A stretch of 64,000 nt of DNA from Candidatus Hatepunaea meridiana (lineage in GTDB: Bacteria > Electryoneota > AABM5-125-24 > Hatepunaeales > Hatepunaeaceae). Position numbers and translations under genes: made by a program. Below are positions 1 to 56,701 of this stretch, piece by piece. The stretch's first letter is position 1, and every line of letters starts with the position of its first letter. The stretch lies in NCBI GenBank assembly GCA_030765125.1, contig JAVCDD010000180.1:7033-71032 (forward strand), written 5' to 3'. The notes below the pieces were generated by a model. The model was not told the origin of the DNA, made no database searches, and worked only from the letters and a program-made list of their open reading frames with translations.

Positions 1-3000
1 ATACGGCGCGGGTCGGGATCTTCATCCAGTATTATATCCCCGATATCCTCAATGATTTCAGGTGGATCGTTGACCGGATTGATCACCAACCGGAAGTCCA
101 GATCGGTTGAAGCACCCGGTTCGTCGGTGGCTCGAATGGTAATTTCTACGCCGTCCGGGATATTGTAATTCGGTTCAGGTTCGAAATGCAGTACATTGAA
201 CTGGTCGACCTCCATATTCAACTCTTCTGGAGCGTCGATGACCGAAAAGTTCATTTCGTCTTCTTCTATATCGTAGAACACTTCGTCGAGGTCAGCCACG
301 TCAACCCGGTCAGGGTCTTCGTCAATCCTTATATTTTCAATCTGTTCGACAATCCGCGGTGCATCGTTGATGGCGTTAACGACGACTTCGAAGACGTCTT
401 CCGCCGTTTCTTCACCATCTGAAGCGGTGATCGTAACATCGACGTTCCCGTTCCAATCCGCTTCAGGCTGGACATAGAGCCTGCCCTGTACAATGCGAAT
501 ACTAAGCCCTTCAGCGTCGGACTCCTGGAACTCAAGATCGTCATCATCATCCGGGTCAACGAAGTGATCGTTCAGATCGGCAATTAGCCTTTCACCGTCG
601 TCCTCGTCAAATTCCTGATCGGGGATTTCCTCTACTAATATGGGTGGTTGATTTACGTGACCGACGGTAATATCAACCGTTGCGCGGGTCCTGCGACCTC
701 CCTGGTCACTTACTTCGAAGATCGGGCTGTATTCACCTTCATCATCAAGATCGGTCTGCCAGTTGAATGTGCCCGTGTTATCACCATTATCAGTGAATTC
801 CGCGCCGCGGTCTTCAGTTCCGTCGTCAACCAGCATTAACAGTTCCAGTTCGTCACCTTCAAACTCGATGTCAAAATCGTCAGCGGTCAGAGTGAATTCG
901 ATTTCATCGCCCTCATCAACATTTACCTCATCCAGCGGGTCAACCCAGAAGGGAGGGTCATTGACAGGGGTTATGGTAACCAGGAATACATCGTCAATGC
1001 TGTCATCACGGCGCGGGGAAGAAGAATTTTGGATTTTGGATTTTGAATGTTGAATGTCAGTAGCGTAAGCATTCCCGCTTGCGGAAACCATACACGCTGT
1101 TCGTAGCGCCGACGTCTTAACGGCATTACCGGAATTATAAGATGGTCTGAATACCATTAAGGCTCTACCGCCTTGATCATCGTCTGCTGTTACGGTTACT
1201 TCGAGATCATCACCGTTGAAATTCTCCGGAGCTTCCAACAGCAGCATATTATCATCGTCAATCTCTGCCGTAAGAGGTTCATCCGCTTCAACAGAGAATG
1301 ACAGATCATCGTCATCCGGGTCCTCGAATACCTCATCCAATACTGCGACTTCAAACTGACCGAAGTCCTCGGGTACACGCATATCCGCAATCGGGCTGAC
1401 TACCCGAGGTGGCTGGTTGATGTTGTTAACGGTGATATTAACCGTCAGATCATCGGTTCCATCATCTGTGTCGGTTACGCGGAAGACAGGGGTATAAGGA
1501 TCATCACGACTATCATCAGCGCCAGGCGTCCAGGTAAATTCTGCCGTGCCGTCGTCGTTATCAGCAAATTCCCATCCGTCAGGCAATTCACCTTCGTCGA
1601 ATACCGACCAGACCAGATCGTTGACATCATCTTCAACATCACTTGCCTGGAAGACGATATGGAGTTCTTCCTCTTCAGTAACATCAACGTCAATCTCATC
1701 GCCTAAAGCCTCGCCCTGATCGTCTTCGATAACAGGATCATCGTTAATCGAAAGGACGTTGATCGTGAATTCATCGGTAATTGATTCGTCTCTTCGAGGA
1801 GGAGAAGAATGTAGGATGAATTTTGAATGTTGAATGTTGAATGTTGAATGTTGATTATTGATTCGGGCGGCGATCATAATTCGCTGTCCCCAACTGTCCT
1901 CGGCTTCGATAATCACCTCTGATTCACCGAAGTAGTTCGGATCTGGTTCTACGGACAGGATGTGTGTTTCAATATCAATATTAGCGTTCAATTCTTGAAT
2001 CTCATTAGCTTCGATGATGTCAAACTCTAAATCATCACCATCCGGATCATCGAAAACATCGTCCAGGTCGGCGATTTCGATTACACCGGCGTCCTCGTCA
2101 ATATCTATATCGTCAATCGGATTTACAACTTCCGGAGGACGGTTGAAGTTGCCGACGGCGATGGTGATCTCCAGATCGACATCTTCCTCACCATCGGATA
2201 CCGTGAAGATTGGCGTATATTCACCTTCGTCTTCGAACGTTGTCTGCCAGGTAAAGCTTGCCGTACCGTGCTCGTTATCATTGAGTTCCGCTTCATCCGG
2301 CAGACCACCGCGGTCGCTGAATTCGATGGTCAGATCGTTGTTGTTGTCCACGTCATCCTGGGCAATAAGTTCGAAACGGGCAACGTTTCCTTCGTTTACC
2401 TCGTAACGATTGTCTTCAGGATAGCTCTCCCAGACCGGTGGATCGTTGAGCGGATTAACGGTAACAGTGAATTCATCGGATACGGTCTCGTCGCGGCGGG
2501 GTGGAGGGTTGAAATAGGGGGACAGTATACCTATTTCTGTTAATGGACCATCGTTCTTTTCAAGAGCACTCATGAAATAGGTATACTGTCCCCCTATTTC
2601 TGCGAGGCTTCGAGATGGCTGCACATTAACCATCAAACGCCCACCGTTCTCCTCATCATCTGCTGTCACGGTTACGATTAGATTCTCACCGTAAAAATCA
2701 TCCTCCGGTCTCAACGTCAGGATATTCTCATCGCTGATTTCCAGATTCAGTTCTTCAGTACCTTCCACCGAGAAAGTAAGATCGACGCCGTTCGGATCTA
2801 CGAAAATTTCATCCAGGTCGGCTACCTCCAACAGACCGGAATCTTCGTCGATTTCGACATCGTCAATCGGATTTACAACTTCGGGAGGATCGTTGATGGC
2901 TATGCCGGCGATATCAACCGTCAATTCAGCGTTGTCAGGATCGTTGGAGCTAATTGTTATTACGTCGCGGAACACACCGGCGTCTTCGGGAGCGAAGGTT

Positions 3001-6000
3001 ACAGTCAATTCATAGTTGTCTTCGGATTCAATAGTAAGTTCTTCGGCAAAGTCAAAACTGAAGTCCTCACCATCGGAAGTTATTTCGAATATTGTCAGGT
3101 CTCCATTGCCTTCGTTGCTTATGGTCAATATCAGTTCTTCGCTCTCGTGAATTGAAACGTTGCCAAAGTCCAGAACATTGGGGGATATGACAATTGCAGG
3201 ATGCGGGACAAAGTCTGTTACGTCAATGATTACCAAACCATTCTCACCGTCGGCGACGTATGCCATATCTCCCACGATCTGAACCCGTTTGGATAAGCCG
3301 TCTGTGTTATGGGCAGCAATCTCGCTCATATCTTCGGGGTCGGACACGTCGATAATTCCCAAGCCTTCCTCCCCGTCACAAACAAAGGCACTATTGCCTC
3401 GTACATCGATGCCCGTCGCTTCACCTTCGGTATCAAACGAGCCGACTTCAGCCGGATTTTCAGGATCGGATACATCGACCACAATAAGTCCATCATTCCA
3501 TTGTGCTACATAGGCGTAATCCCCGACGATAACGACATCCCAGGCTTGACCCGGAGTATCAAAGGATCCAATCTCATCCGGGTCCTCAGGATTGGAAACA
3601 TCGATAATACGAAGACCGCCTCCAGCAGCAGCTAAATATGCATAGTTCCCGTTAACGTCGACGCCTCGTGAATTACCCGGTGTTTCGACTGTGCTGATTT
3701 CATCAGGGTTCTCAGGGTCGGAAATGTCAATTATACTAAGTGCACTACTCCCTTGGCTCTCATCTGCTACATAGGCATAATCGCCCTCAACGCAGACATC
3801 CCAGGCATACATTTGCCACCTTTCGAGTGCGCCAACCTCTTCAGGGTTCTCAGGATCGGAAATATCGATTATGCGAAGCCCACTTCCGAAGTCCGCTACA
3901 TAAGCATAGTTTCCGATTACGAAGACCGCGCGAGATGTCCCTGGAGTATTGTAGAATCCGATTTCATCTGGGTTCTCCGGATCGGTTACGTCGATCATGC
4001 GAAGACCGCTGTTTCCATCTGCAACATATGCAAAGTCGTTTACAACAAAAATCCCCTGGGCATCTCCCGGTGTGTCGTAGGAGCCTACCTCGTCAATCTG
4101 CGGCTCCCGTCCTGTGCCGGTCAGGTCAACGGTCAGTTCATCGTTATTGGGATCGTCAGATGAAATGGTCATTGTGGCGGTGAAATCACCGGTTTCTTCA
4201 GGTATAAAGGAAACGATTAACTCGAAACTGCCTTCCGGTTCGATAACTAACTCGTCCTCGAAGTTGCTGCTGAAATAATTTTCATCAATTGAAATATCGG
4301 ATACGGTCAGGTCGGCGTTGCCTTCGTTGCCAATAGTGAGAATCAGATCACTCCGCTGGTGGACTGCCACTCCGCCGAAGTCCAGTGATGCCGGTGTTAC
4401 AGTAATACCTGCTTCCGGTTCTTGATGGAAGTAAAAAGCGCCCATATCCGCCTGTGTTTCATCAGGATCGTCCGGCGCGTCCGGATCACCGGAGTCGATG
4501 CAGGGGCTGTTGCGGGTCAGGGAATAATCATCATTGTCTATGTCCGCGAACAATGGATCGGAATCAATGTTCCCCGCTCCGGCGTATCCACCTTGAATAT
4601 CGGAGTAGGCGATGGTTAAACCAGCAGGAGTAGCTCCCGGTTGGTTACCCCAGAAGATCGAGTTCACGATTTGAGCGGAGGAGTTATCATAAGTATGAAT
4701 TCCACCATTGCCGGTCTCGCCGATGTTGCCGGTTATAGTTACGTTTATCAAAGTGGGATCGCTGTCGTGTGTGCTGTAGATAGCTCCACCCCAACGACGG
4801 GCGTTATTGCCCTGTATCAACAGATGATCCAGCGTCGGGGCAGCGTCATTGATGTATATTCCTCCGCCGTAGTTGGAATTTCCATTGCGGATAGTGAAGC
4901 CCATCAAGACCGCATCTACTCCAATTCCATCGCGCAAAGTAACCACACTGCCACCGGCGTTGCCGTCTATGATGGTCGATTCTATATAAGCCTGATCGCC
5001 GGTAGTCAATAACAGGCTGGCAACGACTATCTCCTTACCAATGAAGTTGATGCGTTCAGAATAGGTTCCGGAATGAACAAGCACGGTGTCACCGTTCTCG
5101 ACGGCGTTGATAGCCGCCTGGATGGTTCCATAGTCATCCGGGACGTTGAACAGATGCCTGCCGGGGATACCAATTCCGGTCAGTTCGATGGTGGTTACCC
5201 TTTCGTCAGGATCGTCCGAAATGAGGGTCATAAAGGCTTCAAAATCACCGATGTCGTCAGGTGTGAAGGTAACAGGCAGAGACGCCTGCCCTTCCGGTTG
5301 GATGACAATGGCGTTCTCGAAAGTCGGTACGAATGTCTCCGATCCGCGGATGGTAACTTCCGAGACGGTAAGATCGGCGGCGCCCTCGTTGCGGATAGTC
5401 AGGATCAGTTCTTCGCTGTCATCTATACTGACCTCGCCGAATTCCAGGATTTCCGGCTCAACGGCAATATCCGGAGCCACACCTGAACCGGTCAAGGTGA
5501 TTGTTATTTCATCCTCTTCAGGGTCGTTGGATGCTATGGTTATTATTCCCTCAAAATCGGCGACAGCATCCGGTGAGAAGGTGACGATCAGGTCGGTGTT
5601 GTCGTCGGGTTCAATATTGATTGCATCTTCAAAATCACTGTTGAAGTTGTCACCTTCAATTGTCACTTCGGATACGGTAAGAGGACCTTCGCCTTCGTTG
5701 CCGATGGTTAAATTCATCCGGGCATTATCATCGATTACAACTTCACCGAAGTCAAGATTGTACGTTGAAACTGTAATTGCCGGGTGCGGCATAAAGTCGG
5801 TCACGTTCAGGATGCGCAGTCCGCTGGCTCCATCAGCAACATAAGCGTGAGTTCCGATCACTGAAACATCGTAAGCCTCGTCAGGCGTGTTATAAGATGC
5901 GGTTTCACCAATATTTCCCAAGTCGGAAATGTCTATTACCTGCAGTCCACTCTCCATATCCGCAACGTAGGCGAATCTTCCCAAAACCGTTACGGCAACG

Positions 6001-9000
6001 GCGCGATCTGGCGTGTCAAGTTCACCGAGTTCTTCAATATTTTCGGGGTCGGATATATCGAGGATATGTAAACCACTCTCGTTGTCTGTAACGTAGGCGA
6101 TAGATTCGATGATGAATATTTCCGTTGCAATGTCGGGAGTATCGTAGCGTCCCGTTTCTTCGATATTCTCAGGATCGGAAATGTTCAATACTAACAATCC
6201 ATTAGCGCCGTCTGCTACGTAAGCATATTCACCAATGACTGTTACAGCGTGCGCCAATCCCTCTGTATTAAAGGATCCAACCTCGCTCGGATGCGCCCTG
6301 TTTGATATATTGACCACCCTCAGACCGCTCTCCATATCTGCTATATAAGCGATTGTGCCGACAACAGCGACATCAACGGCATTTCCGGGAGTGTCGAATT
6401 CACCTGTTGGATTGGGGTCTCCGGGATCAAAGACGTCTATGACTTGTAAGCCGTTTTCATCGGCGGCTACGAAAGCGTAGTCTTCCGACACAACAACGCT
6501 CATTGCGGTTCCGATATCACCGGCTGATGCGACCTCGTCAGGGTTCTCAGGGTCGGTTATGTCTATTACTCTTAAGCCTCCGTCACCATCTGCAACGAAA
6601 GCGAAATCTTCTATGACGGTAACTCCGTAAGCTGTTCCATCGGTGTCATAGTTTCCTACTTCGTCGATGTCCGGTTCGCGTCCGGCGCCGGATAACTGAA
6701 CAATTATTTCACCGTTTTCGGGATCGTTTGAGGTGATGGTTAATGTGCCTTCGAAATCACCTGCTTCTTGGGGGGCGAAGGTGACAGACAGGAATGTCTG
6801 TCCTACCGGGTCGATGACAATGGGGTCTTCGAAGCTGCTACTGAACCAGACTCCTTCAACGGTTACATCGGATACGGTTAAAGGACCGTCGCCTTCGTTG
6901 CTGATGGTGAGTCTTTGATCAATACTGCGTTCTATCTGTATAGCGCCGAAGTCCAGTTGTTCCGGTTCAACGACTATTATTGGAACTACGCCTGTGCCGG
7001 TTAATGCTATGGCTATTACCTCTTCATCCGGATCATCAGAGGATATGGTCAGTGTTGCTTCAAAATCACCTGATTCCTGTGGAGCGAAAGTAACGGTCAG
7101 ATCGAATTCCTCATCCGGTTGGATGACGAACGCTTCGTCGAAGTCGCTGCTGAAGTAATTCCCTTCAATTGCGATGTCAGAGACGTTCAATTCAACCAAA
7201 CCATCATTGCTTAATGTAAGCGTCAGATCAGCGCTCTCGCCTCCTGACACCTGACCGAAGTTCAATTCATTCGGATTAACCATTAGATTCGGTTCTTGCG
7301 CCTGGTGGTAGTAGAGTGCGCCCATATCGGCGCGGGTTTCGTCCGGGTCTTGATCGGCGTTGGGATCACCGGTGTCGACGCAGGGGCTGTTGCGCAAGAT
7401 TTGGTAGTCGCTGTTGTCTGCATCGGCAAATAAGGGATCTTCCTCGATGTTGCCTGCACCGGCATAGCTGCCTTCAATATCTGAGAAGGTGATCGTCATA
7501 CCGTTCTGCAGATCAGGCGGTTCGTTGCCCCATATAATAGAATTAATCACCTGAGCACTCGCTCCACCGCCGCCGATGCCAATAGCAGCGTTGTCGCTGT
7601 TTGCAGTGTTACCGGAGATGGTTACGTTGACGAGAATGGGAATGGAACCGCTGGTGGCGTATAGCCCACCGCCGCGTCCACTGGCGACGTTGTCGACTAT
7701 AGCGAGGTGATCGAGCGTGGGCGTGGTCTGATCGCCGTTGCAATAGATACCACCGCCCCAATCGGTGTCGGCATTTCTAACGGTAAAGCCGGTCAGGATT
7801 GCCGCTTCCGTTTCACCGTTGCGGAAGACGACCGTACTCCTGCCGTTTGCGCCGCCGTCAATTATGGTCGATTCGATGTATTCAGCCTCACCTGTGGTCA
7901 GGTACAGACTGCCGACGGTTACGTCTATGCCGTTGAAGTTGACGTTCTCTTCGTAGGTGCCGGGTTGAACCAGCACGATGTCACCGGCTATGGATACGTC
8001 GATTGCTTCCTGGATGGTTTCATAGTCATCCGGCACGTTGACGGTGCGCGCTTCGGTCTCTATACCGGTGCCACTCAAATCAACGGTTACTTCTCCTTCA
8101 TCGGGATCGTCGCTGGTTATGGTCAATACAGCTTGCAGATCGCCTGTTTCACCGGGCAAGAAGGTTACATTAACTTCAGAACTTTCGTCCGGTTGGATGA
8201 CAATGGGGTTTAAAAAGTCGCTGCTGTAGTAGGCGCCTGCAATCGTTATATCGGAGACGGTCAGTTCGATATTGCCTTCGTTAGAGATAGTTATGGCTAA
8301 CTGGGACGACCTGCCCATTTCAGTTTCAGGGAAGGCGAGGGCTTCGGGATCAACGGCGATGTCAGGTGTAAGTCCCGATCCGGTTAAGGGGATGTTTATC
8401 TCACCCTCATCGGGATCATTGGACGTTATGGTCAGCGTTCCTTCGAAATCACCGGTTTCATTCGGCTGGAAGTTTACGTTGAACTGCCGGTTGCCGTCCG
8501 GTGCAATTACGAATTCCTCCTCAAAGTCCGAGGAGAAATATTGACCTTCGATGGAAATATCCGAAACAGTAAGATCGGAATTTCCATCATTGGTGATTAT
8601 CAATGGCAGAGTGGATATTTGTCCCACCAGGCAGTCGCCAAATGGGAAGGAATTGCGGTTAACGGTAATATCCGGCGCCACGCCTGAACCGCTTAGCGCA
8701 ACCTCAACCTCCGGATCGTCCGGATCATCGGAAAGTATAGTCAGGGTTGCATCAAAATCGTTCACCTCTTCCGGCGCGAACGTAACGGTCAGCTCAAAGT
8801 CCTCAAACGGTTGGATGACGATTTCTTCATCAAAATCGGTCAGGAATGTCTGCGCTCCCCGGATTGAAATATCCGAAATGGTCAATTCCCAGTTGCCATC
8901 GTTGCTGATGGTTAACGTCAGGTCTTCAGTTTCACCGGTTACAACCTCACCGAAGTCGAACGCTTCGTCTGAAAGGGTGATTTCGGGGTATTGGACGAAG

Positions 9001-12000
9001 TCGGAGACGTCGAGGATTAATAAACCGTTATTCCCATCAGCCACATATGCATAGTTTCCTACAACAGAAACATCCCAAGAATGTTGAGTTCGGTGATTAC
9101 CAACCTCATCAGGATTCTCAGGATCTGAAACATCTATTAAACGTAGACTGCTTTGACCGGCGGGAGTAAAGCATGCAACATAAGCTATGTTACCTACAAC
9201 AGTTAAGTCTCGAGCATAATCACGTGTATCTTGAGATCCAACTTCGACCAATTCATCTGGGTTAGAAATATCAATAATTCTTAGACCTTCTGTATAATCT
9301 GCTACATAAGCATAGTTTTCTATGACTGAAACACCCAGAGCTGCACCTGGAGTATCATATATTCCTAATCCTCCAAGGTTACGAGCATTAATCAATATTA
9401 AACCTGTCTGATTATCTGCAACATAAGCGATCTCATCAACTATCACAACATCCCGTGCGATTTGCGGCGTGTTAAATGAACCGGTTAATCTTGGATCTTC
9501 AGGGTCGGATATGTTAATAGCTTGCAAACCGCTACGTCCATCAGCTATGTAAACATAATCTCCGCTGACCGCAATACCTTCTGCCCAATCAGGAGTATCA
9601 CAGCTTCCTATTTCATCAGGTTCCTCAGGATTAGACACATCAATAATACGGAGACCGCTCTCGTAATCCGCTACAAATGCCAAATTATCCGAAACCACCA
9701 CATCATAGGCATTTCCTGGAGTTTCACAGAAACCTATCTCATCTGGATTCTCTGGATCAGAGATATCTATTATCCGTAGACCCCCTGCATTATCTGCTAA
9801 ATAGGCAATATCCCCGACAATATCTATACCAAATGTTACACCATTAGTATTATAATGCCCCACTTCCGGTATCGCCGGTTCCCTGCCGACTCCCACCAAT
9901 GCAACATCCACTTCCCCATTATCCGGGTCGTCGGAAGTTATGGTCAGTGTCCCCTCGAAGTTGTTCTCGCTGTCCGGTGTGAACCGAACGGGTAGTTCGA
10001 AGGTGGCGTCCGGTTCGACGATCATCTCTTCATCGATATCCTCAAAGATACTGCTGAAGTTGTCGTGTCCGATTGATATATCGGATATGGTCAGGTCGCC
10101 GTCACCGTCGTTGCCGATGGTCAGGATGAGCTCGACGGTCTGGTCGATTACGACCTCGCCGAAGTTCAGCGATTCGGGATCATGCGTGAGGATAGGCGCA
10201 ACGCCCAGTCCGCTTAAGTTCACATCCAATTCTCCATTATCCGGATCATCGGATGTTATGGTCAGCGTTGCCTGCAGGTCTCCGGTCGCGTCAGGTGCAA
10301 AGGTTACGGTCAGTTCATAGGGCTCGTCCGGTTCGATGACGACCTCACCGTCGAAGTCGCTGGTGAAGTAGTCACCCGCGATTGATATGTCGGAAACGGT
10401 CAGAGGCGCGCGTCCCTCGTTGTTATCAATAGTGAGAATCATATCTGTCTCGTGACCGACTACCGTGTTGGGGAAGACAAGCTCTGCCGGTGTTACAGCG
10501 ATAACGGGAGCCGCTTCCTGGAAGAAGTAGAGGGCGCCCATATCGGCGCGCGTGGTGTCGGGGTCTTCGGGAGCGTCGGGATCGGCTGCGTCAACGCAGG
10601 GGCTGTCCTCAGTGATGTAGAAGTCGTTGTTGTCTGTGTCAGCGAAAATGGGATCGGAATCAAGGTTGTCTACTCCAGCGTAACCGCCCTCGATGTCGCA
10701 GTATGCAACGGTCAATCCGTTCGGCATTCCGGCGGGTTGGTTGCCCCAGACGATTGAGTTTCCGATAGTGGCTGAGGCGCCTGCAAAGATATTAATAGCG
10801 CCGACCTCTTCGTTTGCCGTGTTGCCGTAAAGGGTTATAAAGTTCAGATCAGGATTGGCGTTGTTGGTGGCGTAGATACCTCCACCGCGGCTGGTGGAGC
10901 TGTTTCCGTAGATTACCAGATGATCCAGCGTCGGGCTCGCGTCGTTGATATAGAGCCCACCGCCGAAGTCGGTTGAGCCGTTGCGAATGGTGAAGCCTAT
11001 CAGTTCCGCTTCGTCTGTCTCACCGTTGCGGAAGGCGACTACACTACGCCCGTTGTCGCCGCCGTCGATTATGGTTGAGGCTATGTCATCCGGATCGTCG
11101 CTCTCGATATATTGGCTGGCAACCGTGATGTTTTTGCCGCGGAAATTGATGTTCTCATTATAAACACCGGGGTCGACCAGAACGCGGTCGATGTCAATGG
11201 CTTCGTCAATGGCTGCCTGGATGGTCTCGAAGTCATCAGGGACGTTGTATTCGCGGGGCTGTGCTTCGATGCCGGTTCCTGACAGGGCAACAGCAAGCTC
11301 ACCGTTGTCGGGATCGTCTGAGGTGATGGTCATAGTGGCTTCGTGGTCACCGGTCTCGGTGGGGGAGAAAACGACAGACAGGAATGTCTGTCCTACCGGT
11401 TCTATGATTATTTCGTCTGTAAAGTCGCTGCTGAAATAATCCCCTTCAAAGGTTACGTCTGTAATGTACAGGTCTGTATCGCCGGTGTTGCTGATGGTTA
11501 TGACAGACAAGGATGTCCGTCCCACCTCAGTATCAGGGAATCCAATGGCTTCGGGGTCTATGGTGATTTCGGGGTATTCTACGATGCCGCCGGTAACTTC
11601 GGAACAGTTGAAGATGTAAAGCCCTTCATCCTCATCGGTGATATAGGCGTAATTGCCGGATACATACAAGCCGATAGCGTAGCCTGGAGTGTCGTGGAAA
11701 CCAATCTCTTCCGGTTCGGCAGGGTTTGAAACGTCTATCAAGCGCAATCCCTCGTCACCATCGGCAACATAAGCGAAATCATGCGCGACAAAGACGCTTT
11801 CGGATGAGCCGGGAGTGTTTACAAAGCCGACCTCTTCCGGTTCTGCGGGGTTTGATACGTTTATAATGCGAAGTCCACTGCCTGAAGCGGCGACATAAGC
11901 ATAGTCACCGGCTGCGAAAACTCCATAGGCACGACTCGGCATTTCGAGATTGCTCACTTCATCCGGATTTTCCGGGTCGGACACGTCGATTATGCGCAGT

Positions 12001-15000
12001 CCACCGGCTTGATCTGCAAGATAAGCGTAGTCACCTGAAACGTAAACTGAAAAAGCTTGACCGGGTGTGTCGAACGCTCCAATCTCATCGGGATCATCGG
12101 GGTTGGAGACATCAATTATACGCAGACCGCTGGCGCCGTCTGCAACGTAGGCAAGATTGTCTTTGTAATAAACAGCATACGCGGCACCCGGGGTGTCGAA
12201 GGTTCCGACCTCATTGGGATTTTCGGGGTCTGAGATGTCGATTATGCGCAGTCCGCTGGCAGCGTCCGCAACGTAAGCATACGAACCAGCAACGTCTATG
12301 CCGGTTGCTTCACCGGGGGTGTCGTAGGAACCGACAGCCTGCGGTTGACCGGGGTCGGATACGTCGACAATCTGCATACCTTCCCAGTAGTCAGCTATGT
12401 AAGCCAGCCCTCGCGAGACGTAGACGCCTTCGGACATTCCGGGCGTTTCGTAATGACCTACCTGCCGGATCTGCGGACCGGTTCCGATGCCGGTTAAATC
12501 AACTTCAATCTCCTCGTTTTGAGGGTCGTTGGAGGTGATGGTCAGTGTGCCAGCGTAATCGATTGTTTCTACAGGTGTAAATGTTACGGTCTGTTCGATG
12601 CTGTTGTCGGGTTCTATGGTGATTTCGTCCTCAAATACGGTTTGGAATACTTCGTCACCCTGAATGGTAATATCAGTGATGATAAGATCCTCATTTCCTA
12701 CATTGGTGATGGTGAGGATAAGATCGCGGTCAATGTCAATGGCAGACTCGCCGAAGTCGAGCGCACCCGGTGAGATCCTGATAGTCGGAGGCTGGGGTTG
12801 CTGTTGGTAGTAGAATGCGCCCATATCGGCACGTGTTTCATCGCTATCCTGGGGCGAGTTCGGATCACCGACGTCTATACAGGGGGAGTCTTCGGTCAGT
12901 TGGAAATCATCATTGTCAAAGTCGGCAAATAAGGGATCCTGATCGATGTTGCCGGCGCCGTTATAACCACCCTGAACGTCAGAATAGGTAATGGTTTGTC
13001 CACCAGGAAGCGCTGCCGGGGTGTTTCCCCAGAATATCGAGTTGACTGCCTGTGTTTGAGCGCCACCCCCTCCAACACCTATTCCGCCGTTACCGCCATC
13101 GGCGTCGTTGTTGGTGAATGTTATGTTATTCAGGAGCGGTTGCGCACCAGTGGTGACATAGATGCCTGCACCTCGTCCGCTGACGTGATTGCCTGTTATC
13201 AATAGATGATGCAATGTAGGATTAGCGCCACGGATGTAAGAGCCGCCGCCGAAGTCGGTATCTGCATTGCGGATTGTGAAGCCTGCGAGGACAGCTTCGT
13301 TTGTCTCACCGTTGCGGAAGACCGTTACGCTTCTGCCGTTGGCGTCACCGTCGATAATGGTCGAAGCGATGTAATCAGGATCACCGGTTGTGATATAGAG
13401 GCTGCCAACGACGATATTCTTACCAATAAAGTCAATGATCTCAGTATAGGTTTCAGGTTGAACCAGTACTGTGTCACCGTCAGCAGCGTTGTCGATTGCT
13501 TCCTGGATGGTGTCGTAGTCGTCCGGAACGTTGATTATAAAATCTCGTCCCGATCCGGAAAGAGCTACTGCGAGATCCTCGTTCTCAGGATCGTCAGATG
13601 CTATGGTAAGTGTTCCAACGAAATCATCAATGTCATCCGGTGAGAAGGTTACGGTTAATTCGCGACTTTCATTCGGTTGGATGACGATCTCATTCTCGAA
13701 ATCGCTGATGAAGTTGTCCCCTTCAATAGTTATATCGGATATAGTCAGATCACCGAAACCGGTGTTGCTGATAGTGAGTATCAGGTCTGCTTCGTCGTCA
13801 ATCGGAACAGCACCGAAGTCCAGGGCATCCGGAGATACGTCAATAGCGGGGATCGCTTCGACACCGATTCCGGTCAGGTTCACATCCAGGTTCTCGTTAT
13901 CCGGATCGTTAGATGTGATTACAAGCGTGCCGGCGAGATCACCGGTATCATCCGGCTGGAAGGTGACAGTTACATCAGAAGTGTTGCCCGGTTCGATGAC
14001 CACTTCATTCTCGAAATCTGAACTGAATATGTCTCCTTCAATAGTAATATCCGAGACATTCAGGTTTTCACGTCCTCTATTTCGGATGGTTAGAATCAGA
14101 TCGGCGCTCTGGTCGACTACTACCTCAGCAAAGTCAAGCGCTTCAGGAGAAACAACGATGCTCGGTCCCTCTGCCTGGAATAACGGGAATGTTCCCATAT
14201 CGGCGCGTGTGCCGTCCGGGTCTTCGGGTGCATCAGGATTGCCTGTATCTTTACAGGGGCTGTCATCGGTCAGGTGAAAATCATCATTGTCGGGATCAAC
14301 GAACAATGGATCTGTATCTATGTTGCCTCTGCCGTTATAACCGCCCTGGATATCAGAGAATGTGATCGTCTGGTTGGCGGGAATATCTGGTGGGGCATTA
14401 TCCCAGAATATGGAGTTTACAATAGTAACCACTGATCCACCGAAAACATCCAGAACACCGTTGTTTTGCTCAGAATCATTGCGGGTCAGGGTAACGTTTG
14501 TCATCGTAGGACTACCGCCGCCATAGGCAATTATCGCACCGCCCCATCTTACGGTATGGTTATCGGTGATCAATAAATGATCCAGTATCGGGCTGCCGCC
14601 ATTACAGAGTATTCCCCCTCCGAAATCAGCGGCGCCGTTGCGAATTGTAAAACCGGACAGGATGGAATTCACTGTCTCACCGTTGGCAAAGGTTACAACG
14701 CTAGTGTTATTAGCATCGCCATCGATTATGGTTGATTCAACGTAATCCGCATCACCTGTAGTAATAAACAGGCTGCCTACAATGATTTCCTTGCCGTTAA
14801 AGTTGATGTTTTCTGTGTATGTCCCGGGCGCTACCAAAACAGTATCCGTGTCGATGGCATTATCAATAGCTTCCTGTATAGTATCGAAATCATCAGGCAC
14901 ATCGTGTACATGATCGAGCGGTTCGATGCCAGTTCCAGTTAAAGCGACGTCAACTTCTTCTTCATTCGGGTCATCGGATGTAATAGTGAGCGTTCCCTGG

Positions 15001-18000
15001 TAATCTTCTATATCATCAGGTGCAAACGTTACCGTAACATCATAACTGTTGTCCGGTTCGATTACGATTTCATCTTCTTCGAAGTCGTGCGTGAAAACAT
15101 CACCTTCAATAGTGATGTCAGTTACGGTCAGATCGGTACGACCATTATTCCTGATTGTGAGCGACAGTTCAGCGCTCAATTCAAGCTCAACCTCTCCAAA
15201 GATAAGTTGAGCCGGTATTACCGATATGTTTGGCTCTTCCGGCAGCTCGAAGTAGAAGGCGCCCATATCATTGCGTGTTTCGTCAGGATCCTGTGGTGAA
15301 TTCGGATCACCTGCATTTATACAAGGGGAGTCTTCAGTTAATTGGAAATCATCATTATCAAAGTCGGCAAATAAGGGATCGGAATCAAGATTCCCTGCTC
15401 CGGCGTATCCACCCTGAACATCGGAATATGTAATAGTCTGACCGCCAGGAAGCGCTGCAGGTGTGTTTCCCCAGAATATCGAGTTGATTACCTGGGTTTG
15501 AGCGCCGCCCCCACCGACTCCGATTCCACCGTTGGCACCGTCGGCATCGTTGTTGGTGAATGTTATGTTATTCAGGAGCGGTTGTGCTCCGGTAGTGGCA
15601 TAAATCCCTGCGCCGCGTCCGCTGACATGGTTGGCGGTTATTAATAGGTGGTGCAATGTTGGACTGGCGTCACGGATGTATGAGCCGCCTCCGAAGTCGG
15701 TATCTGCATTGCGAATTGTGAAACCGGCAAGGACGGCTTCGTTTGTCTCGCCGTTGCGGAAGACCGTTACGCTTCTGCCGTTGGCGTCACCATCAATAAT
15801 GGTCGAAGCGATATAGTCGGGATCACCTGTGGTGATATACAAACTGCCGACAACGATGTTCTTGCCAATAAAGTCAATGATTTCAGTATAGGTCTCAGGT
15901 TGAACCAGCACCGTGTCGCCGTCAACAGCGTTGTCGATTGCTTCCTGAATGGTATCGTAGTCATCCGGAACATTGATTATGTAATCCCGTCCCGATCCTG
16001 AAAGAGCAACAGCGAGATCCTCGTTCTCCGGATCGTTAGATGCTATGGTTAACGTTCCATTAAAATCACCAACGTCATCCGGTGAGAAGGTCACATTTAA
16101 TTCATAGCTGTCATCCGGTTCGATTACAACCTCATTCTCGAAATCGCTGATGAAATTGTCACCTTCAATGGTTACATCGGATATAGTCAGATCACCGAAG
16201 CCGGTGTTGCTGATGGTTAGTATCAAGCCTGCCTCGTCGTCAACCGGAATTGCTCCAAAGTCCAGCGCATCCGGCAATACTACTATTGCAGGAATCGCTT
16301 CGACACCGATTCCGGTCAGGTTCACCTCCAGATCTTCATTGTCCGGATCGTTGGATGTGATTACAAGCGTACCAGCGAAATCTCCGGTAGCATTCGGCTG
16401 GAAGGTAACGATTACTTCAGAAGTGTTGCCTGGCTCGATGACTACTGCATTCTCAAAATTGCTGCGGAAGTTATCCCCCTCAATTGTTATATCGGATACC
16501 CTTAAGTCTTCACGTCCTCTATTTCGGATGGTGAGCGTCAGATCAGCGCCCTGGTCGACTACTACCTCAGCAAAGTCGAGAGCTTCAGGGGAAACAACGA
16601 TACTTGGTCCTTCAACCTGGAACAGCGGGAATGTTCCCATATCAGCGCGTGTGCCGTCCGGGTCTTCGGGTGCATCAGGATTGCCTGTGTCTTTACAGGG
16701 ACTGTCATCGGTCAGGTGAAAATCATCATTGTCGGGGTCAACGAACAATGGGTCTGTATCTATATTGCCTCTGCCGTTATAACCGCCCTGAATGTCGGAG
16801 AAGGTGATTGTTTGGTTAGCCGGTATATCAGGTGGGTCGTTATCCCAGAATATGGAGTTTACAATAGTAACCACTGATCCACCGAAAACATCCAGAGTGC
16901 CGCTATTTTGCTCGGAATCATTACCGGTCAGGGTAACGTTTCTCATCGTAGGACTACCGCCGCCATACGCAATTATCGCACCGCCCCATCTGACGGAATG
17001 GTTGTCGGTGATCAATAAATGATCCAGCATCGGGCTACCGCCATTACAGAGTATTCCCGCTCCGAAGTTAGCACCGCCATTGCGGATAGTAAAACCTGAC
17101 AGGACGGAATTCACTGTCTCACCGTTGGCAAAAGTTACTACGCTCGTGATATTCCCATCACCGTCAATAATTGTTGATTCGACGAAATCTGCATTACCTG
17201 TTGTAATAAATTGACTGCCGACGACGATTTCCTTGCCGCCAAAGTTGATGTTTTCAGTATAAGTTCCGGGCGCTACCAACACAGTATCCGTATCGATGGC
17301 GTTATCGATGGCTTCCTGAATGGTATCGTAGTCGTCGGGAACGTTGATCCTGAAACTTCTCCCGATTCCAGAAAGAGCGACAGCCAACTCTTCGTTCTCC
17401 GGATCATCTGATGCAATAGTAAGTGTCCCATTAAAATCACCTACGTCATCAGGAGAGAATGTAACCGTTAATTCATAACTGTCATCCGGTTCGATTACAA
17501 CCTCATTCTCAAAGTCGCTGCTGAAGTTATCGCCTTCAAAGGTAACGTCCGAAACGGTCAGGTCACCGAAACCCACGTTGGCGATAGTGAGTATCAGATC
17601 CGCATCGCCGTTAACCACTACCGCACCGAAGTCCAAAGCATCTGGAAATGGATCAATAGAAGGGATAGCTTCCACGCCGATTCCTGTCAGATTAACCTCC
17701 AATTCCTCGTTATCCGGATCATTGGATGTAATTACAAGCGTTCCGTTAAAATCACCTGTATCATCAGGCTGGAAAGTGACAGTTACTTCATAAGTGTTGC
17801 CCGGCTCGATGTCCACTTCATTATCAAAATCGCTTCTGAAGATGTTCCCCTCAATCGTTATATCAGATACATTTAAGTCTTCGCGTCCCCTGTTTCTGAT
17901 AGTGAGCGTTAGATCGGCACTCTGGTCGACTACAACCTCAGCAAAGTCAAGCGCTTCAGGAGAAACAACGATACTTGGTCCCTCTGCCTGGAATAGTGGG

Positions 18001-19862: not shown

Positions 19863-20000
19863 GATGGGTACCTTTTGTATGATTTCTCGATTGAATTGTG
19901 AAGGTTATGATTGTAGATTATCTACAAAACAGCATTATAATTTAACTCTAAACCAGGTTCAAAGTCAAGTCTTTTCATAAGATGAAAATAGAAACTGAAA

Positions 20001-20082: not shown

Positions 20083-20317
20083 CCTTGATTCCTGTGAATA
20101 GATTTACCAATAGGTGTGAATCAGATTCGCATTTGAAAGGATAAAAACGTGTTCAGTTTAAACTGTTAGAGGATATGCTTTGAGTTACCAGTAGGAAGAA
20201 ATGATAACTTGAAACAGATAATAATAACCTAATAAGATGTGCAAAAACCTTGCCGGTTTATTCTATCACTGCGTTGAAAGGAAGCGTCGGGAAGGGCAGA
20301 CATTCTTGTCCGTCACG

Positions 20318-20704
20318 TTAATGATCTTTGTGTTTGTAGTGTCTCTTCCCTTGAGCAGAGCTAACGCTTATCTTCAACGTAGAAGTTGTAATCGGAGGAA
20401 CAAGATCGTTTTTTACCTTCTCAACAGCTTCTCTGACTTTCATACCATGACAAGAATAGACTGTCCAGCCGAAGTTGGCACAATTAGTGAAAGCTCCCGG
20501 TCCAATGTTGCCTACGATGATGCGACCTATATTCATACCTTGAAAACTATCCAAGCCGCGGAATGGTTCTTTTTCTCCTCCGCCCCTTATCGCACTAAAT
20601 TCCATCGTTTCAGGATCAACTATCAGATAATAGGATGCGTGACCGAAGCGTTTGTGAATCTTTGCATCTAAGCTTGGTTCGGTTGCGGTTACTAAGTATT
20701 TCAT
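20318..20704 (-). CDS. NifX/NifB-like dinitrogenase FeMo-cofactor-binding domain protein (128 aa)
   Basis: MKYLVTATEPSLDAKIHKRFGHASYYLIVDPETMEFSAIRGGGEKEPF...GIIVGNIGPGAF matches the PF02579-type pattern (MKIAVxS...HFGHAxxFxIyD...GGG...IGxGA). ATG at 20704 with an AAGGAAA SD. Confidence 0.7.
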   Translation of the reverse strand: MKYLVTATEPSLDAKIHKRFGHASYYLIVDPETMEFSAIRGGGEKEPFRGLDSFQGMNIGRIIVGNIGPGAFTNCANFGWTVYSCHGMKVREAVEKVKNDLVPPITTSTLKISVSSAQGKRHYKHKDH

Positions 20705-34385: not shown

Positions 34386-34436
34386 ACTTGTAGTCGGGTT
34401 TGTGAACAAACCCGACTACAAGTAATGATGCTTTTT
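34386..34436 (+). terminator. Rho-independent terminator candidate downstream of 31069..34227
   Basis: Perfect hairpin acttgtagtcgggtttgt-gaa-caaacccgactacaagt followed by a T-rich tract. Confidence 0.55.
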
Positions 34437-35252: not shown

Positions 35253-35364
35253 GTCGGACAAGAGTGTCCAACCTACTAAAACATCGGTAGGATAGGCATT
35301 CCTGTCTGTCGTACACCTCTTAATTATAGGCATCGTTTGACAGACAAGAATGTCTGTCCTACCC
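35253..35364. repeat. Cluster of three GTAGGACAGACATTCCTGTCTGTC-family palindromes (35253-35276, 35286-35310, 35339-35364)
   Basis: String matches (0-3 mismatches) to the coding copies in gene 1. Confidence 0.65.
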
Positions 35365-35511: not shown

Positions 35512-35556
35512 TAAAACAAAAGCCCGTCCGGTTAATACCGGACGGGCTTTTGGGTT
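35512..35556. terminator. Bidirectional rho-independent terminator (hairpin aaagcccgtccggttaataccggacgggcttt flanked by an A-tract and a T-tract) between the convergent CGGC gene and the 4817-aa gene
   Basis: Perfect 13-bp stem, A-run upstream and T-run downstream on both strands. Confidence 0.6.
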
Positions 35557-35640
35557 TAATTAATATTGTTGCTTCAGGTGTTAACACCTTTGTTTATGTT
35601 GCGTCAGGTGTTAACACCTGACGCAACATAAACGCAGTGA

Positions 35641-50226: not shown

Positions 50227-50646
50227 TGTTTTTCAAGAAAATTTATTCTGTGATATAATTCCAAATTGATGTTCTGGTGTGCAGTTCGGATAAGCAGTAC
50301 ATGAAACGTTCAAGGAATATATAATCTTTTTAATCTTTAAGCAAGTAATTTCAGTCATTATATGTAAATTTTTTAAGTTCAATTACAAGATTTTAATAGT
50401 TTGAATGAGCTTTTTACAATAGTAGATGCGACACTCCTGTCGCATGACTGCTGCGATTTTTAATTGTCTGCCGTATGATTGTTTCGATTTTCTAGGCTAT
50501 TCGATACTAAGATAAGTGATTTAATACGTAAGAAATGTGAGGTAGCGCACAATTTTGAATTTATTTTAATATTTTTTTTATTTTTTTCATAAACCGCAGA
50601 TTACTCAGATTTCACCGATTTCATCTTATTATCTGATCGAAACCCC

Positions 50647-56562: not shown

Positions 56563-56567
56563 TGTTT

Positions 56568-56599
56568 GTGGTGTCGTGGTGTCGTGGTGTTGTGGTGTC
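56568..56599. repeat. Octanucleotide array (gtggtgty)x4 immediately after the C25-1 stop codon
   Basis: gtggtgtc gtggtgtc gtggtgtt gtggtgtc. Confidence 0.6.
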
Positions 56600-56608
56600 G
56601 GGATTTAA

Positions 56609-56701
56609 GGGTAGGACAGACATTCCTATCTGTCGGTAGGTTGGACACTCCTGTCCGACAATCATCGTGTCAGACAATCCCGAAGTTTCGGGATGACCTA
56701 C
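56609..56701. repeat. Intergenic palindromic repeats: ggtaggacagacattcctatctgtcggtagg, ttggacactcctgtccgaca and cccgaagtttcggg
   Basis: String matches to the 35.25-35.36 kb cluster and to the coding copies in gene 1. Confidence 0.65.

Follow-up and report, generated by a model that had tools for sequence, protein, structure and literature searches.

A GTAG-tagged REP unit in intergenic DNA and, in frame, in Ig-like domains of a giant protein of Candidatus Hatepunaea meridiana

The locus and its palindromic units

The 64-kb stretch of contig JAVCDD010000180.1 considered here (the window; all positions are counted from its first letter) stems from Candidatus (Ca.) Hatepunaea meridiana, a member of Ca. 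Electryoneota within the FCB group, and carries a short palindrome both in its intergenic DNA and, in frame, in a giant gene. We identify this palindrome below as one unit of a family of repetitive extragenic palindromes (REPs), and the question pursued is how such a unit came to lie within the coding sequence. The host, gene 1, belongs to a minus-strand open frame of 6634 codons (3..19904) that runs off the window and holds both exact copies of the palindrome. Its product starts with a signal-peptide-like N-terminus and comprises about 21 ASH/choice-of-anchor D immunoglobulin (Ig)-like domains of 101 amino acids (aa), LVIVD repeats and cadherin-like domains, with matches to the Pfam families PF22544, PF15780 and PF08309 and, above cut-off, to NCBIfam NF012200 (choice-of-anchor D). 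The initial annotation of the sequence had described the host domains as CARDB-like. However, CARDB (PF07705; E-values of 6.5e-9 and 1.8e-11, with no stretch passing alone) amounts to a weak overlapping match, and the HYDIN/VesB Ig-like family PF22544 (E ~2e-133) and ASH (PF15780, E 3e-101) fit these domains far better.

A 25-mer search of the window places GACAGACAGGAATGTCTGTCCTACC exactly at 6783-6807 and 11373-11397; the second position agrees with the initial annotation, while the first copy is genuine but had been listed one base too high (6784-6808). Near copies are found at 35286-35310 (minus strand, 2 mismatches), 35339-35363 (plus strand, 1 mismatch) and 56610-56634 (minus strand, 1 mismatch), in line with the recurrences described earlier around 35286, 35339 and 56609. 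No match is expected by chance and none arose in 100 dinucleotide-preserving shuffles, so that the claim that this identity between coding and intergenic DNA is no coincidence holds. Read on the head strand, the unit runs GTAG-G-ACAGACA-TTCC-TGTCTGT-C, in which the GTAG head leads into an 8-bp stem with the arms GACAGACA/TGTCTGTC and a 4-nt loop of the form TTCY.

Further units were collected with a looser pattern, and the same set was recovered by a structure-aware score, for which shuffles yield 0.1 hits at the threshold of 15/18. Altogether, the roughly 5.4 kb of intergenic DNA contain seven REP units (Table 1), whereas the roughly 58.6 kb of coding DNA contain four REP-derived patches, or five with an antisense candidate at 1060-1083, all of them in gene 1. 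The coding patches at 6783, 11373 and 11502 reach the threshold of the structure-aware scan; the one at 5271-5294 was instead recognized by comparing paralogous sites. The exact copies and most units of the window have GTAG ahead of the stem, and decayed units show GAAG or GTGG in its place.

Table 1. Giant gene 1 and the REP units of the window, in order of position
Feature	Position	Strand	Details
Giant gene 1	3..19862	-	more than 6600 codons; 3' end beyond the window; hosts all coding REP copies
Probable decayed REP-like unit GAAGGGCAGGCGTCTCTGCCTGTT	5271..5294	-	in frame, EGQASLPV; 16/24; moderate confidence
Exact REP unit GTAGGACAGACATTCCTGTCTGTC	6783..6806	-	in frame, VGQTFLSV; replaces 8 native codons, domain aa 4308-4408; 24/24
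Second exact REP unit	11373..11396	-	frame and domain position as in the 6783 copy; non-sister domain aa 2778-2878; 24/24
Decayed REP-like unit GTGGGACGGACATCCTTGTCTGTC	11502..11525	-	in frame, VGRTSLSV; 20/24; earlier strand of domain 2778-2878
Degenerate REP unit GAAGGGCAGACATTCTTGTCCGTC	20291..20314	+	upstream of gene 1; 4 nt beyond the stop of a NifX-like ORF (20318..20704, minus strand)
REP unit, second stem type, GTAGGTTGGACACTCTTGTCCGAC	35253..35276	-	intergenic; from looser-pattern and structure-aware scans
Head-to-head REP dimer	35287..35362	35287-35310 (+), 35339-35362 (-)	GTAG ends outward
REP variant GTAGATGCGACACTCCTGTCGCAT	50422..50445	+	compensated stem, CTCC loop; score 18/18; between divergent giant genes 2 and 3
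Tandem REP pair	56611..56659	+	56611-56634 (GACAGACA type), 56636-56659 (GTTGGACA type)

The intergenic units sit in the 3' regions of genes. For example, the tandem pair lies in the 3' region of an 1830-aa gene (stop at 56562), and the dimer, together with the unit at 35253, is found between the stop (35202) of a CGGC-domain gene and the bidirectional terminator at 35517-35552. The dimer is predicted to form a single extended hairpin (-50.8 kcal/mol, z -6.4). None of the REP units was called as an intrinsic terminator (a GC-rich hairpin with a T run behind it) when the window was scanned; the terminator-like site of the 35-kb spacer is a different hairpin of 16 bp, namely the bidirectional terminator just mentioned.

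A REP family with RAYT partners in many phyla

A scan of species-representative genomes (one genome per species) with the pattern GTAGGACAGACA-NNNN-TGTCTGTC returned at least 119 loci from, among others, Acidobacteriota (Pyrinomonadaceae, Blastocatellia, Thermoanaerobaculia, Terriglobia), Planctomycetota, Verrucomicrobia, Chitinophagaceae (Bacteroidota), Ignavibacteria, Kapaibacterium, KSB1, Zixibacteria, Nitrospirae and Chloroflexi (Chloroflexota). What these loci share is the 24-mer GTAGGACAGACATTCCTGTCTGTC, with at least 145 copies in unrelated flanks. The loop on the GTAG strand reads YTCY in 136 of the 145 copies listed and is hence fixed relative to the GTAG head, which means that the unit is oriented. 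GTAG itself was part of the search pattern, yet it recurs in units that were found independently beside genes of REP-associated tyrosine transposases (RAYTs). Pairs of a plus unit followed by a minus unit, 50-110 bp apart, are frequent among the loci listed. Only about 15 of 197 units in the fetched loci lie deep within long open frames, and most of these frames look spurious. When 2107 open reading frames (ORFs) from the at least 119 loci were clustered, no neighbouring gene family proved common to the copies, save RAYT genes in four. Side by side with this, many of the fetched loci (L001-L201) alternate two stem types, GACAGACA with either GTCAGACA or GTCGGACA, and the window does likewise (GACAGACA with GTTGGACA).

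Several searches for a previous description came back empty. Neither the unit sequence nor a variant with a GGCA stem was matched in the full text of the searchable literature, the peptides GQTFL and GMPVL are absent from the supplements of Di Nocera 2013 (PMC3733652), and a search with all Rfam families at their gathering thresholds gave no match across the whole window. A comparison with empty sites at the 201 loci yielded a single REP-related indel, an internal 18-nt difference that is not informative.

The link to RAYTs was found in other genomes. ORFs of about 155 aa lie directly beside the unit in three loci (L013, L043 and L065), with inverted units on either side of the gene in L013 and L043, and a further copy is embedded in L112. 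These ORFs are 42-50 % identical to each other, contain the motifs RRHLPHW, HUH (HVHLLL) and Y-x3-NP, match Pfam Y1_Tnp and exceed the 80-bit cut-off of the NCBIfam equivalog NF047646 ('REP-associated tyrosine transposase') at 93.7 and 87.1 bits; their best relative in the PDB is TnpAREP of E. coli (4ER8). When metagenomes were scanned with these RAYTs as an alignment, 482 relatives were obtained, and the best 80 loci were examined for hairpins: 55 of the 80 have a GTAG hairpin no more than 350 nt from the gene ends, 38 contain the strict family pattern, and 21 carry units on both sides. At these loci the stems covary (GTCAGACA/TGTCTGAC, GACAAACA/TGTTTGTC, GACAGGCA/TGCCTGTC and CACAGACA/TGTCTGTG) around a constant TTCY loop. 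Judged from these sequences, RAYT (TnpAREP) enzymes of one HUH/Y1-type clade are predicted to have the unit as their cognate single-stranded-DNA substrate.

Two further observations concern the RAYTs. The identical 24-mer GTAGGACAGACATTCCTGTCTGTC accompanies, in many phyla, RAYTs whose mutual identity is only 42-71 %, a constancy that suggests an unusually frozen enzyme-substrate pair and merits follow-up. In L112 (contig QNEE01000060.1 of the Guaymas metagenome-assembled genome B46_G16), a 1643-aa frame at 2365-7293 (plus strand) encodes a Type ISP/IIG restriction-modification enzyme with the domains HSDR_N, N6_Mtase and, in three matched stretches, Type_ISP_C. This frame stays open through four REP clusters, read as VGQTFLSV or, in the other orientation, as EQAGMPVLP, and it likewise runs without stops through an entire RAYT (Y1_Tnp) domain that separates the methylase domain from the specificity domain.

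GTAG-tagged REPs and their RAYT/TnpAREP enzymes have been described in detail (Nunvar 2010, PMC2817692; Di Nocera 2013, PMC3733652; Corneloup 2021, PMC8266576; structure 4ER8), and the unit agrees with them in its GTAG head beside a short palindrome, its dispersal in high copy number, its mostly extragenic position downstream of genes, its head-to-head dimers and the RAYT genes flanked by inverted units in other genomes. With an 8-bp stem and a 4-nt loop it falls within the usual stem-loop dimensions (20-40 bp, the stem accounting for about 6-9 bp and showing compensatory changes), and both the compensatory changes in the stem and the conserved loop recall the small perfect-palindrome 'group 3' REPs. 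The dimer at 35287-35362 resembles a REPIN (Bertels and Rainey 2011, PMC3116915) in that two inverted REPs with a short spacer form one long hairpin, whereas the coding copies are single units rather than doublets. A further difference is the occurrence of the same 24-mer in many phyla, since most described families are limited to a species or genus. The unit thus displays every REP feature testable here, and we assign the 25-mer to a GTAG-tagged REP family, of which it represents a single unit.

The presence of the 25-mer in coding as well as intergenic DNA is thereby explained: one and the same mobile REP unit occurs in each. The intergenic copies of the window are ordinary REPs, occurring as singles, as tandems and as one head-to-head dimer, and they are not gene remnants. 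The initial annotation had considered that they might derive from coding DNA and had proposed to look for confinement of the motif to this one gene family; the unit is instead widespread, being dispersed in many phyla and located beside RAYT genes, and this derivation is therefore rejected.

Coding units in the Ig-like domains and their origin

Both exact copies read G GTA GGA CAG ACA TTC CTG TCT GTC and thus encode VGQTFLSV. All four coding patches lie on one strand and in one frame (head-strand frame 0), which is kept open. The degenerate coding copy reported at 11509-11533 does exist, its actual position being 11502-11525, and at this site the paralogues match the REP at only 3-12 of 24 positions. 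The patch at 5271-5294, which had gone unreported, belongs to the domain at aa 4811-4912, where its position corresponds to that of the exact copies in theirs; in a comparison by hand, it agrees with the GGCA stem variant at 18 of 24 positions.

The 21 paralogous domains provide a reference for the state of the site in which no REP is present. In an HMM alignment as well as in an independent MAFFT alignment there is no gap at the REP, and the same holds at the nucleotide level. VGQTFLSV fills the eight columns that are otherwise taken by peptides of the types D-N-S-Y-D-V-T-V, G-N-T-Y-E-V-T-V and D-D-S-Y-E-L-T-V, just before a conserved T-F-x-P. Nucleotide matches to the REP 24-mer at this site amount to 24/24 in domains 2778 and 4308 (domains are named by their first residue) and 16/24 in domain 4811, but only to 5-12/24 in the 18 others. 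Hence, the paralogue alignment that had been suggested as a check shows unrelated native codons of the same length, with no gap, in the 18 domains that lack the palindrome. By these alignments, the REP copies overwrote exactly eight codons of a core beta-strand and left the length of the gene unchanged.

The domains concerned are not sisters. When the REP columns are excluded, domain 4308 is nearest to 1205, 748 and 2019 (60-65 % aa identity), all of which have native codons at the site, and domain 2778 is nearest to 3847 (60 %), while 2778 and 4308 share 54 %. At the nucleotide level, 2778 and 4308 are 58 % identical outside the REP, and their longest other identical run is 12 nt as compared to 27 nt at the REP. 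As this 27-nt run consists of the 24-nt unit and a CCG common to nearly all paralogues, the shared tract starts and stops at the REP borders. Comparison of the domains accordingly indicates that the exact copies are not the product of a recent domain duplication. The REP peptide is also absent from each of the 120 best database homologues of the gene 1 segment; two contigs that share the radical-SAM gene end before the REP sites, and look-ups of the 1830-aa gene and of two Hatepunaea homologues led to no recorded contig. Given native codons in the paralogues and homologues free of the peptide, the sequence moved from the REP family into the gene.

The earlier assignment of GQTFLSV to a beta-strand agrees with an AlphaFold model of domain 4308-4408, computed with the paralogues as alignment (pLDDT 96.8), in which QTFLSVTF is predicted as a beta-strand and V-G as a turn. 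The native inward-facing pattern Y-x-L-x-V-x-F becomes T-x-L-x-V-x-F. This fit would explain why the copies persist: read in the head-strand frame, VGQTFLSV may mimic the native turn plus strand, placing hydrophobic residues at the inward positions L, V and F of D-D-S-Y-E-L-T-V-T-F. The suggestion that a palindromic repeat had been domesticated in frame within Ig-domain strands is therefore correct as to the in-frame repeat but goes too far with regard to domestication, for which mere tolerance suffices, and a function of the coding hairpins need not be assumed.

Palindromes within genes are not without precedent. In-frame REPs in Opitutus terrae, Thauera and others are inserts that add residues, for which linkers or loops have been proposed, and intragenic REP dimers add 20-30 aa (PMC3733652); as cited in the same paper, the Rickettsia palindromic elements (RPEs) are likewise in-frame palindromic inserts. 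The coding units of gene 1 have in common with these that an in-frame palindrome resides in a gene that is probably still functional and that open frames of the element are used recurrently. They differ in two respects: single 24-nt units swap eight native codons here, so that nothing is inserted, and the model places them in a core beta-strand, at homologous positions of non-sister paralogues, rather than in a loop or linker.

Gene 1 also contains a REP-like antisense unit, GTAGCGTAAGCATTCCCGCTTGCG, at 1060-1083 (plus strand; structure-aware score 16/18), which reads ASGNAYA in a stretch of cadherin-like domains where paralogues show indels. This may be an inserted unit of opposite orientation, or it may have arisen by chance.

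With respect to origin, we regard it as rather probable that the coding copies represent REP sequence, from a RAYT-associated family, that overwrote 24 nt in Ig-like domains of a giant surface protein, and that this sequence was copied from a template. The most plausible process would be a short-patch replacement templated by another REP copy, which could proceed by template switching or gene conversion during replication, or else through an exchange of strands that a RAYT catalyses on folded single-stranded DNA. The site may lend itself to such an event through its native likeness to the outer REP stem, as several paralogues begin with GAY GAC AGY and some end in ACT GTC where the REP has GACAG...CTGTC, and the native quasi-palindrome at the target would be GATGACAGTTATGAATTAACTGTC. 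Selection would then retain only in-frame, fold-compatible outcomes, which would explain why a single frame is used. In quasipalindrome template-switch mutation, a short imperfect inverted repeat is corrected from a template during replication, with no net change in length. The classical form takes the other arm of that palindrome as its template, whereas in gene 1 the loop and the GTAG head also fit the family consensus, and the template must then have been another REP copy.

Several points weigh against a templated replacement. The microhomology is weak, since GACAG is offset by 1 nt and both ends occur together in no single extant paralogue. Equal-length replacement is undocumented for REPs and RAYTs, for which only cleavage and strand transfer have been described in vitro (PMC8266576). 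A tblastn search found no RAYT gene within the window, and the presence of the cognate enzyme in Ca. Hatepunaea meridiana is assumed. Moreover, the closest database relatives of gene 1 are at most 50 % identical, and length neutrality is read from the paralogues. Finally, both decayed copies retain hairpins, a possible hint of selection on structure.

A possible, although doubtful, alternative is that a single ancestral REP entry was followed by domain duplication and decay, with two copies kept identical by REP-limited gene conversion or RAYT-mediated exchange. Such a history would account for the orientation and frame shared by all coding copies, for the domain position shared by three of them and for the decayed copies at 5271 and 11502, and an identity tract that coincides with the REP borders is what REP-to-REP conversion gives. 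However, the REP-bearing domains form no clade, the nearest relatives of 4308 (1205, 748 and 2019) being native with 6/24 matches, and the peptide is missing from database homologues of other taxa; besides, the initial entry would still require a length-neutral event. Intragenic conversion between two domains was also considered as the sole cause and is unlikely, given flanks of 58 % identity and an identity that ends at the REP borders.

Somewhat less credible than an ancestral entry, and improbable on balance, is that selection maintains the coding hairpins as RNA elements of the 20-kb transcript, with a part in its stability, in its processing by RNase or in the pausing of ribosomes. The REP sites are predicted to form, on the mRNA strand, 8-bp hairpins with a UUCC loop (-14.7 kcal/mol at 6783 and -11.8 kcal/mol at 11373), and the decayed copies fold as well (-15.7 kcal/mol at 11502; -16.3 kcal/mol, z -2.8, at 5271), their pairing being maintained via a G-U pair, while native paralogous sites have no hairpin (-5.7 and -3.5 kcal/mol, z near 0). 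REPs downstream of genes are, furthermore, thought to serve as RNA elements (PMC3733652). What speaks against such a role is, first, the loop: the initial annotation had named GGAA (GNRA) or UUCC on an 8-bp stem, and although the stem was described correctly, the loop in the gene 1 mRNA is UUCC and not of the GNRA type, GGAA lying on the antisense strand. Second, the orientation of the loop tracks the GTAG head in all contexts and not transcription, as would be expected of a RAYT that recognizes single-stranded DNA strand-specifically. Third, single stem mismatches of the G-T and A-C types (18 vs 11) reveal no significant strand bias, and no Rfam family matches. In addition, the unit is present in only two to four of the 21 domains, and an 8-bp stem would be unwound by translation. 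The RNA-level role (stability, processing) put forward in the initial annotation is thus not upheld.

It is very unlikely that a REP was inserted in the ordinary way (+24 nt) and that a deletion of 24 nt then restored the length of the domain. The known intragenic REPs are indeed insertions (PMC3733652), and the REP arrays in L112 break Type_ISP_C into its three matched stretches; nevertheless, two precise events per site would be required at two or three sites, with zero offset in any alignment. That the intergenic copies are remnants of the gene family, or a product of chance or convergence, can practically be dismissed, for although they lie near other giant repeat-protein genes, their flanks have no coding similarity to the domains, 0 matches are expected by chance, and the unit is found in more than 100 unrelated contexts in many phyla, including the flanks of RAYT genes.

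Further elements of the window and implications

The degenerate unit at 20291 is also covered by a plus-strand ORF at 20237..20671, in which it would read EGQTFLSV. This ORF looks spurious, and the overlapping minus-strand NifX-like ORF is taken as the real gene; the latter (20318-20704, 128 aa) bears a NifX/NifB-type resemblance as judged by eye. Public gene calls on the contigs L120 and L121 chose the plus-strand ORF (20237-20671, 144 aa), translating the unit as EGQTFLSV.

Other palindromes accompany the REP units. A perfect 42-nt palindrome at 35592-35633, with 21-bp arms and GTTAAC at its centre, begins 8 nt past the stop of a 4817-aa gene and is distinct from the 16-bp bidirectional terminator at 35517-35552; a partial copy of it, CAGGTGTTAACACCT, is located at 35575-35589. 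Four tandem copies of GTGGTGTC / GTGGTGTT fill 56566-56600, between the stop of the 1830-aa gene and the tandem REP pair. GTAG/CTAC-tagged palindromes with other stems are present at 34392-34417 and 56676-56701, reading TGTAG-TCGGGTTTG-TGAA-CAAACCCGA-CTACA, with both ends tagged, and AATCCCGA-AGTT-TCGGGATG-ACCTAC, respectively, and these may represent further REP families of the same genome.

The region 27068-62233 is a cluster of genes for very large secreted repeat proteins (1113, 1052, 4817, 1830 and 1804 aa), which adjoins the gene for the protein of more than 6600 aa, and most of the spacers between its genes hold REP units. The 1113- and 1052-aa proteins match Pfam Por_Secre_tail, the C-terminal sorting domain of the type IX secretion system (T9SS), and the 4817-, 1830- and 1804-aa proteins have C-terminal tails that appear similar by eye.

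REPs, RAYTs, REPINs and in-frame REPs that act as insertions are all known already, and what is unusual in gene 1 is the length-neutral rewriting of a beta-strand. In annotation, such units should be read neither as regulatory RNA motifs nor as signs of gene fragments. The dissemination of REPs has been stated to be poorly understood (PMC8266576), and the 18 paralogous domains with native sequence, which bear on this spread, constitute a rare internal control for the site as it was before the REP.

As a tentative generalization, to which we assign a rather low likelihood, new REP copies in this lineage may also arise, besides by insertion, by templated, length-neutral overwriting of hairpin-like host sequence. 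A weaker corollary would be that the two identical direct REPs of gene 1, which are spaced by 4590 nt (1530 codons), can bring about in-frame variation in the length of the protein. If the generalization were true, the Ig-like repeats, which keep the 'before' state beside the 'after', would offer direct evidence on how REPs spread, and the unit would be a selfish palindrome able to rewrite the core beta-strand of a folded domain.

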